Source: an uncultured Gammaproteobacteria bacterium (GTDB taxonomy: Bacteria > Pseudomonadota > Gammaproteobacteria > Pseudomonadales > Halieaceae). Taken from it: a DNA stretch of 64,000 nt. The stretch covers positions 1,398 through 65,397 of the forward strand of contig CAVQRS010000003.1 of NCBI GenBank assembly GCA_963715345.1, given 5' to 3'. This document shows positions 4,525 to 7,922 of this stretch, in pieces (within the stretch, counting starts at the first letter, position 1; every line of letters starts with the position of its first letter). A program made the translations under genes and the position numbers. Under the pieces are notes generated by a model. The model was not told the origin of the DNA, did no database searches, and worked only from the letters and a program-made list of their open reading frames with translations.

Positions 4525-5769
4525 TTATTTGCAGTTGGTCCGCAACATCAGCTGCTTGAATACCACCGCGTTGTGGTCGCTCCCGTCCCGCTCAGGTTCC
4601 CCCGCCAGTTCAAGGTTCGGGAAGCGCTTGAACAGTTCCGATATGGTCAGGTATAGCTGGCGCTTGGCCAGGGCGGCGCCGATGCAGTAGCGCGGACCGT
4701 AGCCAAACAGCACATCTGGATTGAACTCCCGCTCCACGTCAAACACTTCCGGGTGATCGTAGTATTCCGGGTCGTGGTCCTTCAGGTGCGGCATCATCAG
4801 CACCATCTGGCCCTTGCGCACCTGGTGACCGAGGATTTCCATATCCCGCGGCGCGTAGCGGGCGAAGCCCATTTTCGACGCGGTACCCCAGCGGCTGATT
4901 TCGCTGAAGGCATTGGAGAACGCATCCGGGGTAGCCAGGGCCTTGGCAACCTGGTCCTTGTGCTTGAGCAGGCAGTAGACCGACCACTGCTGTGCCACCA
5001 GGGTGGTGTCGGCGCCGGCGCCTATCAGTGCCAGGATCAGGGTGATGATATCCCCCTCCTCGAAGCCCGGGTTCTCCTGCTCAATTTTCAACAGGGTGCT
5101 GAGGAAGTCGTCCTGCACCGGGTCCAGCCTGCGCTCGGCGATAACCAGTTTCAGGATGTCGATGGCCCGGTTGCTGTCCTGCCGCGCCTTCTCCCTGCGC
5201 TCGTCGGAAATGGTAGGATTCCAGGTCTCGGTGAAGGTCATGATGACCTGCTTGATATCCGGCCAGTACTTCTCCGGGATGCCCACCATCCTGGTAATGG
5301 AGATAAACGGAATATGGGCGGCGATCTTGTCGATGTAATCAAAGGTCTCCGGCGTGCCCAGTTCATCGAACAGCCGCTTCACATCGGGCTCGATCTTGCG
5401 CTGGATAGAGTCCACCACGTTGCGGGAAAAAGCCGGCGCCGTCACCCGCCGCACCAGGCGGTGGTGGTCGTGGTCCGCCAGCAGGCTGTGGCCGATCAGG
5501 GCCCGCTCGAAATTGCTCCACTGGTCCTCCGGCGGCCGCGGCGGGGCGAATTCCCAGTCGTAGAAGTCGGAGGACAGTGGCTCCTCCTTCCAGCAGGCCA
5601 TGATGTCCGGCATGCGGGTCATGATCCAGGCCTGCCAGGGCTCGTACCACACCAGCCGCCCCCGCTCCATCAACGCGAGGCACTGGGGAATCGGGTCCGC
5701 CATGTACGCCTCGGAGTTGGGGTCGAACAGTTGCTCTATCGGTACCAGGTTCTCTGCTGCGTCTGCCAT
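4525..5769 (-). CDS. Cytochrome P450
   Basis: Haem-binding loop FGYGPRYCIGAALA, and an I-helix-like LIGAGADTT. I chose the ATG at 5769 (MADAAENLVPIEQLF) because GAGGAAG lies 5-11 nt upstream. The listed ORF extends to 5856. Confidence 0.9.
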   Translation of the reverse strand: MADAAENLVPIEQLFDPNSEAYMADPIPQCLALMERGRLVWYEPWQAWIMTRMPDIMACWKEEPLSSDFYDWEFAPPRPPEDQWSNFERALIGHSLLADHDHHRLVRRVTAPAFSRNVVDSIQRKIEPDVKRLFDELGTPETFDYIDKIAAHIPFISITRMVGIPEKYWPDIKQVIMTFTETWNPTISDERREKARQDSNRAIDILKLVIAERRLDPVQDDFLSTLLKIEQENPGFEEGDIITLILALIGAGADTTLVAQQWSVYCLLKHKDQVAKALATPDAFSNAFSEISRWGTASKMGFARYAPRDMEILGHQVRKGQMVLMMPHLKDHDPEYYDHPEVFDVEREFNPDVLFGYGPRYCIGAALAKRQLYLTISELFKRFPNLELAGEPERDGSDHNAVVFKQLMLRTNCK

Positions 5770-5964
5770 TGAATCTTCCTCGACACGCCGGTTTGGTCTG
5801 GCCAAACGGTTGTGCCCTGTCTGGGTTGAAAACCGGTAGTCTAGCAAGTCCTTCAAAGCTGCACAAATGTATACTTTTGCTAAATCTCGGCTTTTGGGGC
5901 TCTTGTCTTAACTTTGTTGGGGTGTAGTGTCGGTGTGCAGTTGTTGTGCTGTTCCATTCGCGGC

Positions 5965-6105
5965 GGAGGACGGGGGTTGCCTCGCTCCACGGCTGCGGCC
6001 CTCCGGGCTGCCCTCAGTCGGTCGCGAGCCTTAAAGCGCTTCGCTGTCTCGCTCCACTCCTTCGGCGTGCGCCTTTTACGTTCCGCGAGGCAACCCCCGC
6101 CCTCC
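5965..6105. repeat. 141-nt structured hairpin repeat, copy 1 (core inverted relative to copy 2)
   Basis: Terminal arms GGAGGACGGGGGTTGCCTCGC (5965-5985) and GCGAGGCAACCCCCGCCCTCC (6085-6105) pair at 20 of 21 positions. The 99-nt core is the reverse complement of the copy-2 core and differs at 13 positions by my hand alignment. Confidence 0.8.
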
Positions 6106-6186
6106 ACCGCATTGAGTTCAATCAACACAGGTGTGGCGGCACCGCCATAACTTTCCCGGGTTTGTTTATACGCTCGATGTGAGGCA

Positions 6187-6327
6187 GGGGTCCGGGTGTG
6201 TCCTGGCGGAATGTAAAAGGCCAGCGCCGAGGGAGTGGAAGGAGACAGCGAAGCGCTTTAAGGCTCCTGACCGACTGAGGGCACCCCGGAGGGGCGCGGC
6301 CATGGAGCCAGGACACACCCGGACCCC
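6187..6327. repeat. 141-nt structured hairpin repeat, copy 2
   Basis: Terminal arms GGGGTCCGGGTGTGTCCTGGC (6187-6207) and GCCAGGACACACCCGGACCCC (6307-6327) pair at 21 of 21 positions. Same length and internal helices as copy 1. The spacer between copies is 81 bp and contains the palindrome TGGCGGCACCGCCA (6134-6147). Confidence 0.8.
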
Positions 6328-6386
6328 GGCCGACTTGGAACTATGACTTCTTCGCGAATTCACGGCTCGTAAAGTCTGAATCTACT

Positions 6387-7922
6387 CTAACCGGAGTGAG
6401 TGTCACTATCGGTATTGGGCGTCGAGGCGCACTCAGGCGGCTGTCGGTCGCTGGCCGCCAGCATGTCGCTGATGCGGGTCGCAAGGTCGCCGGGCACCTG
6501 GGACCAGTCGAAGCGCCAGCGCCAGTTGCCCTGCGTGGTGCCGGGGGTGTTCATGCGGTGGCTGCCGTCGAGGCCGAGGAAATCCTGCCAGGGAATGACG
6601 GCGGTGTTGGCGGGGGAGGCCATGGCCTGGTGAATCAGCATCCAGGGCATCGGCTCCGATGGATTGCCGTAATAGGCGTAGACCTTTGCCCGGGTGGCCT
6701 GGTCCAGGCTCTCGAACCAGCCCAGGGTGGTGTTGTTGTCATGGGTGCCGGTATAGACGATATCCGTGTTGGAATGCAGGTGGTTCAGGTAGGGGTTGTC
6801 GGGGTTGCCGTCGAAGGCAAACTGCAGGATCAGCATGCCAGGCAGGCCGAACTCCTTGCGCAGGTCCTCCACCTCGGCCGTGATCGAGCCCAGGTTCTCA
6901 GCCACCAGCTTGAGCTCGGGGTAGTTGGCCCGCACCGCCTGCAGCAACTCGCGCCCGGGGGCCTCCACCCAGTGTCCATCCCGGGCTGAAGTGGCGCTGG
7001 CCGGGATCTCCCAGTAGGCCTGCAGGGCGCGAAAGTGGTCAATGCGGGCGATATCGAATTGTTTTGCCGCCGAGTCGAAGCGCTGCAGCCACCATTGGAA
7101 ACCGGTATCGCGCATCAGCTGCCAGTTGTATTGCGGGTTGCCCCACAGCTGGCCCTCGGCGCTGAAGTAGTCCGGCGGCACACCGGTGACGGTGACCGGG
7201 TGGCCGACCTCGTCCAGGTCGAACTGTTGCTGGTGGGCCCACACGTCGGCGCTCTCGAGATGCACGTAGATGGGGATATCCCCGAACAGCAGCACGCCCT
7301 TGTCATTCGCGTACTCGCGCAATTCGCGCCACTGGCAGTCAAAGACGAACTGTCGAAAGCGCAGCTTGGTGATCTGGGCGTTCAGCTCTGCCGTCAGTGC
7401 ATCACACACCAGAGGGTCGCGGTCGCGGAGCCCCCTGGTCCACTCAGCCCAGGAGCGCTGCTCTTGGCTCTGGCGGAAGGCGTGAAAGCGTACATAGTCT
7501 TCCAGCCAGAAGTCGGAATTTTGCAGGAAATCCAGATAGGCACAGACCATGGGTGCCTCCGGCCTGAATTCAACCTCCTGGAAAAACGCGTCGCAGGCCA
7601 GGTTCAGGGCCTCGCGCTTGGCCCACCTGTCCACCATGCCGTGCTCGGCCTGCGCCCTGGTCAGCCAGTTGTGCCGTACCAGCCATTGCAGGTCGATCAG
7701 GTCAGGGCTGCCCGCGTGCACGGAAAAGGACTGGTAGGGGCAGCCGTCCGGGTGGGTCGGCCCCAGTGGCAGTACCTGCCAGATGCTGAGGCCCGCCGCG
7801 GCGATGAGATCGACAAAACGGCGTGCGTCGGCGCCAAAATCCCCGCAATATCCCGGCCCGGGCAGGCTCGTGGGATGGAGCAGGACGCCGCAGCGGCGCT
7901 GTGCGAGCAGTGGTGCGGTCAC
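6387..7922 (-). CDS. malQ: 4-alpha-glucanotransferase (amylomaltase, GH77)
   Basis: N terminus CGVLLHPTSLPGPGYCGDFG, with YFSAEGQLWGNPQYNW and IDHFRAL blocks typical of MalQ. GTG start at 7922 overlaps the upstream stop (GTGA). Confidence 0.92.
   Translation of the reverse strand: MTAPLLAQRRCGVLLHPTSLPGPGYCGDFGADARRFVDLIAAAGLSIWQVLPLGPTHPDGCPYQSFSVHAGSPDLIDLQWLVRHNWLTRAQAEHGMVDRWAKREALNLACDAFFQEVEFRPEAPMVCAYLDFLQNSDFWLEDYVRFHAFRQSQEQRSWAEWTRGLRDRDPLVCDALTAELNAQITKLRFRQFVFDCQWRELREYANDKGVLLFGDIPIYVHLESADVWAHQQQFDLDEVGHPVTVTGVPPDYFSAEGQLWGNPQYNWQLMRDTGFQWWLQRFDSAAKQFDIARIDHFRALQAYWEIPASATSARDGHWVEAPGRELLQAVRANYPELKLVAENLGSITAEVEDLRKEFGLPGMLILQFAFDGNPDNPYLNHLHSNTDIVYTGTHDNNTTLGWFESLDQATRAKVYAYYGNPSEPMPWMLIHQAMASPANTAVIPWQDFLGLDGSHRMNTPGTTQGNWRWRFDWSQVPGDLATRISDMLAASDRQPPECASTPNTDSDTHSG

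Follow-up and report, generated by a model that had tools for sequence, protein, structure and literature searches.

An old, lineage-restricted family of tail-to-tail hairpin repeats in Halieaceae, probably under selection to fold, and its 391-bp representative between malQ and a cytochrome P450 gene

The window analyzed here, i.e. the whole 64,000-nucleotide stretch of contig CAVQRS010000003.1 (assembly GCA_963715345.1) from an uncultured gammaproteobacterium of the family Halieaceae, contains a composite inverted repeat of 391 bp in the intergenic region between malQ and a cytochrome P450 gene. The composite consists of two hairpin units, A and B, arranged tail-to-tail across a spacer. The malQ stop lies 46 nt from the element, so that unit B is sense-oriented downstream of malQ. 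The features at the locus, with the clamp stem called P1 and the core helices P1b to P4, are the following.

4525-5769, minus strand: cytochrome P450 gene (Pfam PF00067), with its start 181 nt from the element.
5951-6341, no strand assigned: the whole composite (391 bp), i.e. unit A, spacer and inverted unit B, delimited by the inverted repeat and by a length comparison of 18 composites.
5951-5959, plus strand: conserved unpaired 5' tail of unit A, GTTCCATTC, one outer terminus of the composite.
5960-5985, plus strand: 5' arm of clamp stem P1 of unit A, 26 nt, 92% complementary to 6085-6110.
5986-6084, plus strand: conserved core of unit A, placed by mapping alignment columns to coordinates, by RNAalifold (P2 and P3) and by per-pair counts.
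5989-5991/6079-6081, plus strand: helix P1b of unit A.
5995-6001/6005-6011, plus strand: helix P2 of unit A, with loop TCC.
6012-6023, plus strand: conserved junction of unit A, CCTCAGTCGGTC.
6016-6021/6054-6058, plus strand: extension of P3 in unit A.
6024-6028/6048-6052, plus strand: helix P3 of unit A, with an apical hairpin at 6035-6045.
6064-6073, plus strand: helix P4 of unit A.
6085-6110, plus strand: 3' arm of clamp stem P1 of unit A, from the inverted-repeat search.
6111-6182, no strand assigned: spacer between the units, 72 nt, conserved in length and not in sequence.
6183-6207, minus strand: 3' arm of clamp stem P1 of unit B, 25 nt, 96% complementary to 6307-6331.
6208-6306, minus strand: conserved core of unit B, read 5' to 3' on the minus strand.
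6301-6303/6211-6213, 6291-6297/6281-6287 and 6269-6280, minus strand: P1b, P2 and the junction of unit B.
6264-6268/6240-6244, 6247-6257 and 6219-6228, minus strand: P3, its apical hairpin and P4 of unit B.
6307-6331, minus strand: 5' arm of clamp stem P1 of unit B, from the inverted-repeat search.
6332-6341, minus strand: 5' tail of unit B, the reverse complement of which is GTTCCAAGTC, the other terminus of the composite.
6387-7922, minus strand: malQ, a GH77 4-alpha-glucanotransferase gene (Pfam PF02446, E = 8e-150).

An earlier note on the window, made from its letters alone, had described two separate inverted hairpin elements of 141 nt with preserved helices. The paired hairpins and their helices were confirmed, both in the window and across 83 distinct units of a wider family, and the core alignment of the two 141-nt copies (5965-6105 on the plus and 6187-6327 on the minus strand) is free of gaps. 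The unit is however longer than 141 nt, as it also includes the conserved 5' tail GTTCCATTC and a stem of 25-26 bp, and instead of two separate elements the copies are halves of one 391-bp tail-to-tail composite of constant length, which begins with GTTCCATTC at one side and ends with GACTTGGAAC at the other. The individual helices that it described were all correct at the coordinates given. The 21-nt stems have changed at seven of their 21 positions, with an A.C opposition in copy A; ACG/CGT (5989-5991 with 6079-6081) becomes ATG/CAT (6211-6213 with 6301-6303), and GCGAG/CTCGC (6024-6028 with 6048-6052) becomes AGGAG/CTCCT; the P2 hairpin (5995-6011) shows a G-C to C-G flip together with a retained G.T wobble. 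A GGC-N4-GCC hairpin is indeed present in both copies (6064-6073 in A, 6219-6228 in B), but other subfamilies use those bases to lengthen the basal helix. An independent repeat search returned the inverted repeat 5951-6099/6193-6341, with 149 nt, 80% complementarity and 93 nt separating the arms; no further long local inverted repeats were found in the 64-kb window, and the core pattern matched it only twice, both times in the element (chance expectation 0). Folding of either unit on either strand gave -77 to -84 kcal/mol, with z-scores of -5.4 to -8.3 and none of 200 shuffles equal to it.

The copy search that the earlier note had proposed, here performed with core patterns and nhmmer and complemented with per-sequence duplex calculations, placed the window element in a dispersed family. 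An exact search with a 40-nt core identified 16 loci (carrying L numbers below) in Mangrovimicrobium sediminis, Haliea, Halioglobus and metagenome-assembled genomes (MAGs) of other Halieaceae, with several loci per genome, and a degenerate core pattern added 69 loci in marine and estuarine metagenomes. With an nhmmer core profile run over the collected sources, 123 related units were distributed over 85 loci, and the copy number appears to be in the tens per genome rather than in the hundreds. No copy was found in viral contigs with the degenerate pattern, nor in phage and plasmid records by blastn. Neighboring units were arranged as plus followed by minus, i.e. tail-to-tail, in 37 out of 37 pairs, and never in the opposite arrangement; units that seemed single in the pattern search were mostly partnered, by a unit with a core deviating from the pattern. 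The composites of the window, L006 and L009 align from GTTCCATTC to GGAAC, and the sequence outside is unrelated. The tail is kept in most A- and B-type copies, again with unrelated sequence beyond it. Out of 18 unique composites, 13 have an inter-terminus distance of 390-395 bp, the window copy having 391 bp. Units measure 141-190 nt, the modules of a typical composite about 160-190 nt. In each, 25-35 bp of clamp stem enclose an asymmetric, conserved core about 100 nt long.

Not all copies are complete. In L002 (33-233) a B-type 5' arm is combined with an A-type 3' arm and the stem is lost, as expected from recombination between inverted cores. In L027, L039 and L050 the core or the partner has been deleted between short direct repeats, e.g. 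CTCCAC, with the outer GAATGGAAC end retained, and 5'-truncated units abut complete ones in L020, L053 and L056.

Pairing across the family was scored on alignment A4, i.e. the 83 distinct units aligned with plain MAFFT, using a 43-pair structure that comprises the inner 14 pairs of clamp P1, P1b, P2, P3 with its extension and apical hairpin, and P4. RNAalifold retrieved P2 and P3 from the same alignment. Paired cells amounted to 89.4%, against 40-48% when the partners were slid by 1-3 columns; 25 of the 43 pairs had changed on both sides (12-18 in the slid controls), as had 340 cells (43-70 in the controls), and none of 500 shuffles matched the observed values on any of these three measures. 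Single pairs change freely between complementary states: pair 70-80 of P2 is C-G in 45 units, G-C in 33 and A-U in three, pair 54-162 of P1 is G-C in 35, C-G in 20 and U-A in 16, and for pairs 96-125 and 97-124 of P3 all of G-C, A-U, U-A and C-G occur. The apical hairpin of P3, AGCG-CTT-CGCT, is in some lineages swapped for CCGC-AA-GCGG, CAGG-ATAAACC-CCTG or GCCC-AAA-GGGC, with the pairing kept. Other parts of the core hardly vary, namely the unpaired stretches CCCTCAGTCGGTC and TCCACTCCCTCGGCG, which are nearly invariant, and pair 69-81 of P2, which is G.T in 82 of the 83 units.

At least nine classes of clamp arms exist, with identities below 60% over 20 nt. The two arms of the same unit form a duplex of on average -48 kcal/mol, as compared to -20 to -26 kcal/mol for arms taken from different units (those less than 80% identical), and in the metagenomic organism Ga0126341 each copy has its own matched pair of arms. 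Counted per region inside the A and B subfamilies, compensated states number 5-6 and one-sided ones 15-17. Compensation is not universal, as the lost stem of L002 illustrates. The clamp is free in sequence but required to be self-complementary, and a constraint on the helices for pairing is supported. The earlier suggestion of selection on secondary structure accordingly gained support from the pairing counts, from the self-specific arms and from the compensation within subfamilies.

Matched changes in the two arms can also arise without any function of the fold. Template-switch correction of imperfect inverted repeats is documented as a mutational mechanism in Escherichia coli, and if quasipalindromes were corrected by such intramolecular switching, the copies could be inert relics. 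A DNA-level process of this type is strand-symmetric and predicts a clamp without strand-specific wobble bias, which is what the clamp shows. It would however leave unexplained why a non-palindromic core and its unpaired stretches are conserved while the spacer has drifted to 54% identity, why the spacer has a constant length, and why covariation occurs in 5-bp helices that enclose a structured loop of 19 nt. It should moreover be inefficient across a 99-nt core, and it has left the G.T of P2 uncorrected in 82 of 83 units. We consider this explanation quite improbable.

The age of the copies bears on the same question. Among non-orthologous composites, the mean pairwise identity is 86.4% for unit A and 89.3% for unit B but only 53.6% for the spacer, which is close to the baseline of 47-48% for unrelated flanks, even though spacer length is nearly constant among these copies. 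Copies inside one MAG are 82-86% identical, i.e. no closer than copies of different genomes, and the orthologous copies at the rplS-xerD site (see below) share 78% identity. As the units are 86-89% identical with a spacer near the flank level and no excess of similarity within genomes, there has been no recent burst and the copies are old. Neutral parts have, by this comparison, been randomized while each copy kept its core sequence and its pairing. An intact fold in old copies is the best reason to believe that folding is important for each resident copy, and it argues that the matched arm changes are not merely the signature of a few master copies.

These observations also bear on a classical MITE, or miniature inverted-repeat transposable element, i.e. 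an insertion sequence reduced by deletion and mobilized through the binding of a DDE transposase to its terminal inverted repeats. The family does have inverted termini (GTTCCATT...AATGGAAC), a constant length and an intergenic, non-coding location. The termini are on the other hand short and poorly defined, conservation is highest in the interior, near-identical copies within one genome are missing, no transposase gene was found in any collected locus, and the family was not found in plasmids, phages or viral contigs. Nor did the 18 unique composites show a target-site duplication, as their two sides shared no k-mer (k=2-9) up to 8 nt from the ends, whatever the offset. A MITE origin is hardly credible on these grounds. 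The statement in the earlier note that the element is not a simple decaying MITE holds, given old copies with near-random spacers, conserved units and no target-site duplication, and its remark that no transposase, reverse transcriptase or integrase is nearby was borne out by domain and neighbor-gene searches.

The family is a previously undescribed, old and lineage-restricted non-coding intergenic repeat of Halieaceae (Cellvibrionales); a full-text literature search returned no relevant paper containing the core sequence, and none on Halieaceae repeats. The element itself is a nested palindrome of about 390 bp, neither a unique RNA gene nor a young MITE. With a probability of roughly 0.7, we interpret it as a member of a structured dispersed repeat family that selection constrains to fold, of the same kind as repetitive extragenic palindromic (REP) sequences, bacterial interspersed mosaic elements (BIMEs) and REPINs (hairpin-forming REP doublets).

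Orthologous sites indicate that composites have been gained, lost or inverted. The intergenic region between rplS and the chromosomal xerD holds a composite in the configuration A-> <-B in L009, composites of the opposite orientation in L091 and L093, and a different long-stem hairpin module in L092, whereas L094 is empty, with 105 nt that include the rplS terminator and the xerD promoter region. This site seems to be a hotspot for hairpin modules. The window locus has an orthologue in Haliea (L088) with the gene order GH57-malQ-[ion channel gene]-P450-FadL, in which a 221-amino-acid Ion_trans_2 channel gene, missing from the window, occupies the place of the element (L088:2193-3000 versus window 5770-6386). 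For the loci P0025 and P0075, synteny upstream of the gene was not found.

Such a pattern would also be expected from a selfish, non-autonomous DNA element of the REPIN type, for which the fold is needed only as a single-stranded DNA (ssDNA) substrate and from which the host gains nothing. The enzyme would act in trans, as an HUH/Y1 protein (RAYT-like or IS200/IS605-like) or another structure-specific recombinase, and compensation would arise since only folding copies get copied. The family occupies unrelated intergenic sites within one genome, the rplS-xerD site may be empty, filled either way or holding another module, and truncated, nested and chimeric copies exist (L002, L020, L027, L039, L050, L056). 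Moreover, target-site duplications are missing, as with HUH elements, a conserved unpaired 5' tail lies by the hairpin like GTAG by a REP, the clamp lacks the G.U excess of an RNA, and the antisense strand carries C-GNA-G triloops, a DNA mini-hairpin motif. REPINs themselves provide a precedent (PMC3116915). What such an element leaves unaccounted for is that no RAYT, Y1 or recurrent gene stands beside about 100 loci, although REPs typically flank the RAYT genes to which they belong, and that old copies are intact and without a within-genome burst where mostly decayed copies would be expected. In addition, no known HUH recognition hairpin comes near the size of a core with three helices, about 100 nt and long unpaired stretches that do not vary, and the invariant G.T is an uncorrected mismatch on both DNA strands. 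A purely selfish element is for these reasons a serious candidate, if on balance an unlikely one.

As judged from crude gene calls, 23 of 41 elements lie in convergent, 15 in tandem and only three in divergent intergenic regions, and this excess of convergent and tandem arrangements indicates the preference for gene 3' ends that the earlier note had proposed to look for. Clamp stems are followed by ACCGCATTGAG or CTGCCTCACAT and not by a U-tract, so the intrinsic terminator, one of the candidates considered, failed. A sigma-70-like site, GTGACA-16-TAGATT, was observed at 6379-6406 on the minus strand, where it extends over the end of malQ, some 35 nt upstream of unit B, and is directed into this unit in its sense orientation (0.1 chance sites expected in the region). 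It is the only promoter-like site and is located in the flank, outside the repeat family; as flanks and spacer are unconserved, the element is without a promoter of its own.

The mechanism we tentatively prefer for the folding repeat is that of a cis-acting folded RNA, i.e. an end-structure or protein platform. The element would act as a folded single strand, as REP, BIME and REPIN elements do. Transcripts entering from either neighbor gene would meet a sense-oriented module first, and the stable clamp and core could then form an RNA end-structure or a platform for protein binding, resulting in 3'-end protection or in control of read-through. New sites would be reached only rarely, probably by way of an ssDNA hairpin intermediate and an enzyme encoded elsewhere in the genome.

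Each unit might alternatively be a gene for a structured RNA of about 140-190 nt, together constituting a family of trans-acting small RNAs or ribonucleoprotein RNAs, possibly released from the clamp by RNase III, with conserved CCUCC/CUCCC single strands that would either base-pair to ribosome-binding sites or serve for protein binding. The architecture is RNA-like indeed, in that junctions are conserved, helices covary and the peripheral hairpin differs in length, the core helices favor G.U on one strand and the G.U of P2 is invariant, and units are conserved across genera at 86-89%. Yet neither the unrelated 5' flanks nor the nearly random spacer leave room for a shared promoter in either direction, terminators and Rfam matches are missing, and a repeat accounts better for the many inverted copies that are dispersed and in several cases located behind terminators. 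We regard such a gene family as improbable. Searched against Rfam 15 at gathering thresholds, the whole window gave no match, so that the known Rfam family which the earlier note had named as a possible refutation was not found; at a permissive setting (E < 10) only a plant miRNA model appeared, with 17 bits against a threshold of 137.

Concerning the acting molecule, one-sided changes in the core helices leave a G.T on the sense strand more often than on the other strand, with 25 versus 1 in the P3 extension, 36 versus 9 in P1b and 14 versus 4 in P4, to which the invariant G.T of P2 adds, although many of the counted cells are inherited and do not represent independent events. The opposite is seen elsewhere (see below), and core and clamp thus conflict as strand evidence. 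When unit A is paired to unit B, the whole composite is predicted to fold most stably, into one hairpin of about 170 bp, at -275 kcal/mol as RNA and -158 kcal/mol as DNA, the alternative being local folding into two 'clover' modules; the differences between the arms of A and B cost the long hairpin more stability than they cost the local stems. The two candidates of the earlier note, a structured RNA and an ssDNA hairpin substrate, are consequently both live, while a single-locus RNA gene no longer fits a dispersed family with unconserved flanks and spacer.

At both apices, the antisense strand spells a C-GNA-G triloop, namely GGA in P2 (6002-6004) and GCGAAGC in P3 (6039-6041), and likewise in unit B. 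In A4 they occupy columns 74-76 and 111-113, with the middle N varying (sense loops TCC/TGC/TTC in P2 and CTT/CTG/CTA/CTC in P3). The DNA sequence d(GCGNAGC) is an unusually stable mini-hairpin, and the triloops may hint at DNA folding on the antisense strand.

Several observations weigh against a structured repeat selected to fold, or against the RNA mechanism preferred for it. The loci were collected with core patterns, whereby intact cores are over-represented and fully decayed copies under-sampled. The partner units, which were not used as bait, form a less biased sample, and most of them are intact although the deletion derivatives L027, L039 and L050 exist. The counts of G.T in the apical hairpin (2 versus 17) and in the clamp (14 versus 50 by cells) do not fit the sense strand, and by unique contexts the clamp gives 22 versus 23, i.e. 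A.C is as frequent as G.T. Several copies are preceded, at a distance of 25-50 nt, by the rho-independent terminator of the upstream gene itself, so that such a module would be transcribed by read-through only, and no terminator-like site was found in 5700-6500 of the window. Clustering of 400 open reading frames (ORFs) near elements gave only orthologous sets and no recurrent neighbor gene, and tblastn with the RayT of E. coli, run on 606 kb that surround about 100 loci of the element, reached a best E-value of 0.66. The flanks of rplS-xerD are too diverged for junctions to be placed at base level, which makes the insertion boundaries approximate, and L088 does not provide a clean empty site for the window locus, as only the P450 operator region is common. 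Lastly, an asymmetric three-helix core is conserved here while the arms are free, which is the reverse of the REP/REPIN pattern.

The sole large cluster among the ORFs consisted of frames that read through the repeat itself and is an artifact. Such long false ORFs (L006:2322-3254 and 44 similar ones, in 42 loci) cluster like a protein family, and many metagenome matches are situated at contig ends; the repeat is a probable cause of assembly breaks and of false gene calls in MAGs of Halieaceae. A coding function was rejected since, despite open frames crossing the element on both strands, substitutions follow base pairs and not codons. A tRNA-like structure, suggested by the D-arm-like CUCAGUCGGU, was also rejected, as GNNGAG covaries with a downstream CUCNNC and ARAGORN detected no tRNA or tmRNA. 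Several antisense GGA motifs could suggest a Csr/Rsm sponge, which has no promoter, terminator or Rfam match to support it, and a retron msr/msd lacks its reverse transcriptase.

Other modules were observed in the same intergenic regions. H2, in which a long copy-specific stem closes the conserved apex CCAGGGTGAGTATCTTGGCAGTCCGAACCCTGG, occurs in either orientation and often beside units, i.e. downstream in L018, L029, L043, L046, L051 and L001 and upstream in L007 and L012, while none was found in the window. It has the same design as the units, with a free clamp around a conserved core. H3 is a very long hairpin module of about 190 nt that starts with GGGCGCGGCTGGGG..., has a conserved interior and is located some 60-250 nt downstream of a unit in L022, L025, L032 and L076. 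H4, a long variable stem around CTGCAGCCATGGATGGCTGCAG, is the module at the rplS-xerD site of L092 (1290-1420), where it folds at -108 kcal/mol, and is also found downstream of the L049 unit. The recurrence of a free clamp and conserved asymmetric core in at least three other, unrelated modules hints at a general and so far undescribed module system in Halieaceae. The window itself contains a near-palindrome, CAAATGTATACTTTTG, at 5858-5882 upstream of the P450 gene, with the counterpart GGTATACATTTGT in Haliea L088. It is the sole part of the intergenic region conserved there and is probably the operator/promoter of the P450-fadL genes.

A bolder proposal, which we find doubtful, is that each unit belongs to a new class of functional structured nucleic acid with a specific tertiary fold. 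If so, a fold built from the invariant unpaired stretches, the G.U and the three helices would bind a dedicated protein or catalyze self-cleavage or processing, and the nested palindrome would deliver one sense copy to transcripts or ssDNA from either side. Irrespective of this, REP, BIME and REPIN repeats are abundant and still poorly understood, and the Halieaceae family inverts their usual pattern of conserved arms. A fold kept against randomized spacers is unusually clean evidence of selection on each resident copy, so that the family lends itself to the question of what repeats of this kind do, either for the cell or for their own sake. It also constitutes a candidate structured-RNA or ssDNA motif, covered by no Rfam model, for the ecologically important marine clade OM60/NOR5.

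Among known systems, integron attC sites share the conservation of structure over sequence, the kept mismatches and unpaired bases and a length of up to about 140 nt. They occur however in direct-orientation arrays by intI, with R and L boxes, whereas the repeats described here form inverted pairs between housekeeping genes. An attC identity thus fails on arrangement, and neither intI nor any other integrase was found beside the window copy. The ERIC/IRU (enterobacterial repetitive intergenic consensus, or intergenic repeat unit) elements of enterobacteria and the Correia elements (CREE) of Neisseria are likewise imperfect palindromes of 100-160 bp in transcribed intergenic regions and give rise to long RNA hairpins that are processed by RNases. 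There is no sequence similarity to either, and neither has a variable clamp around a conserved multi-helix core; Correia elements additionally have conserved 26-bp terminal repeats of their own and a TA duplication, the latter missing in the Halieaceae repeat.

The BIMEs of E. coli, mosaics in which REP types Y and Z alternate in orientation and are joined by fixed linkers, are more alike in organization. The Halieaceae repeat likewise combines two kinds of unit, A and B, that alternate in orientation around a linker of constant length, lies at gene 3' ends and co-occurs with other hairpin modules as a mosaic, although there is no sequence relation to E. coli REP and the units here are much larger. 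For BIMEs, binding of IHF, gyrase or Pol I and effects on mRNA stability or attenuation are part of the picture. The most far-reaching likeness is that to REPINs, i.e. inverted REP doublets that form hairpins and in which compensatory changes are common, as described in Pseudomonas fluorescens SBW25 (PMC3116915). In both cases inverted palindromic units are separated by a spacer for which length counts more than sequence, folding of the doublet can yield either a single long hairpin or a local 'clover' of hairpins, compensation is frequent, and the elements are dispersed and extragenic, lack target-site duplications, persist for long and leave singlet remnants. The inverted doublet with hairpin and compensation, one mark of the REP kind, is found in the Halieaceae repeat, with 37 out of 37 pairs tail-to-tail. 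Another mark, a palindrome of 20-40 nt with conserved arms and a GTAG-like tail, is not, the tail here being GTTCCATT. The units are furthermore 5-7 times larger (141-190 nt versus about 25 nt), no RAYT is found beside any copy, and there are apparently tens of copies and not hundreds.

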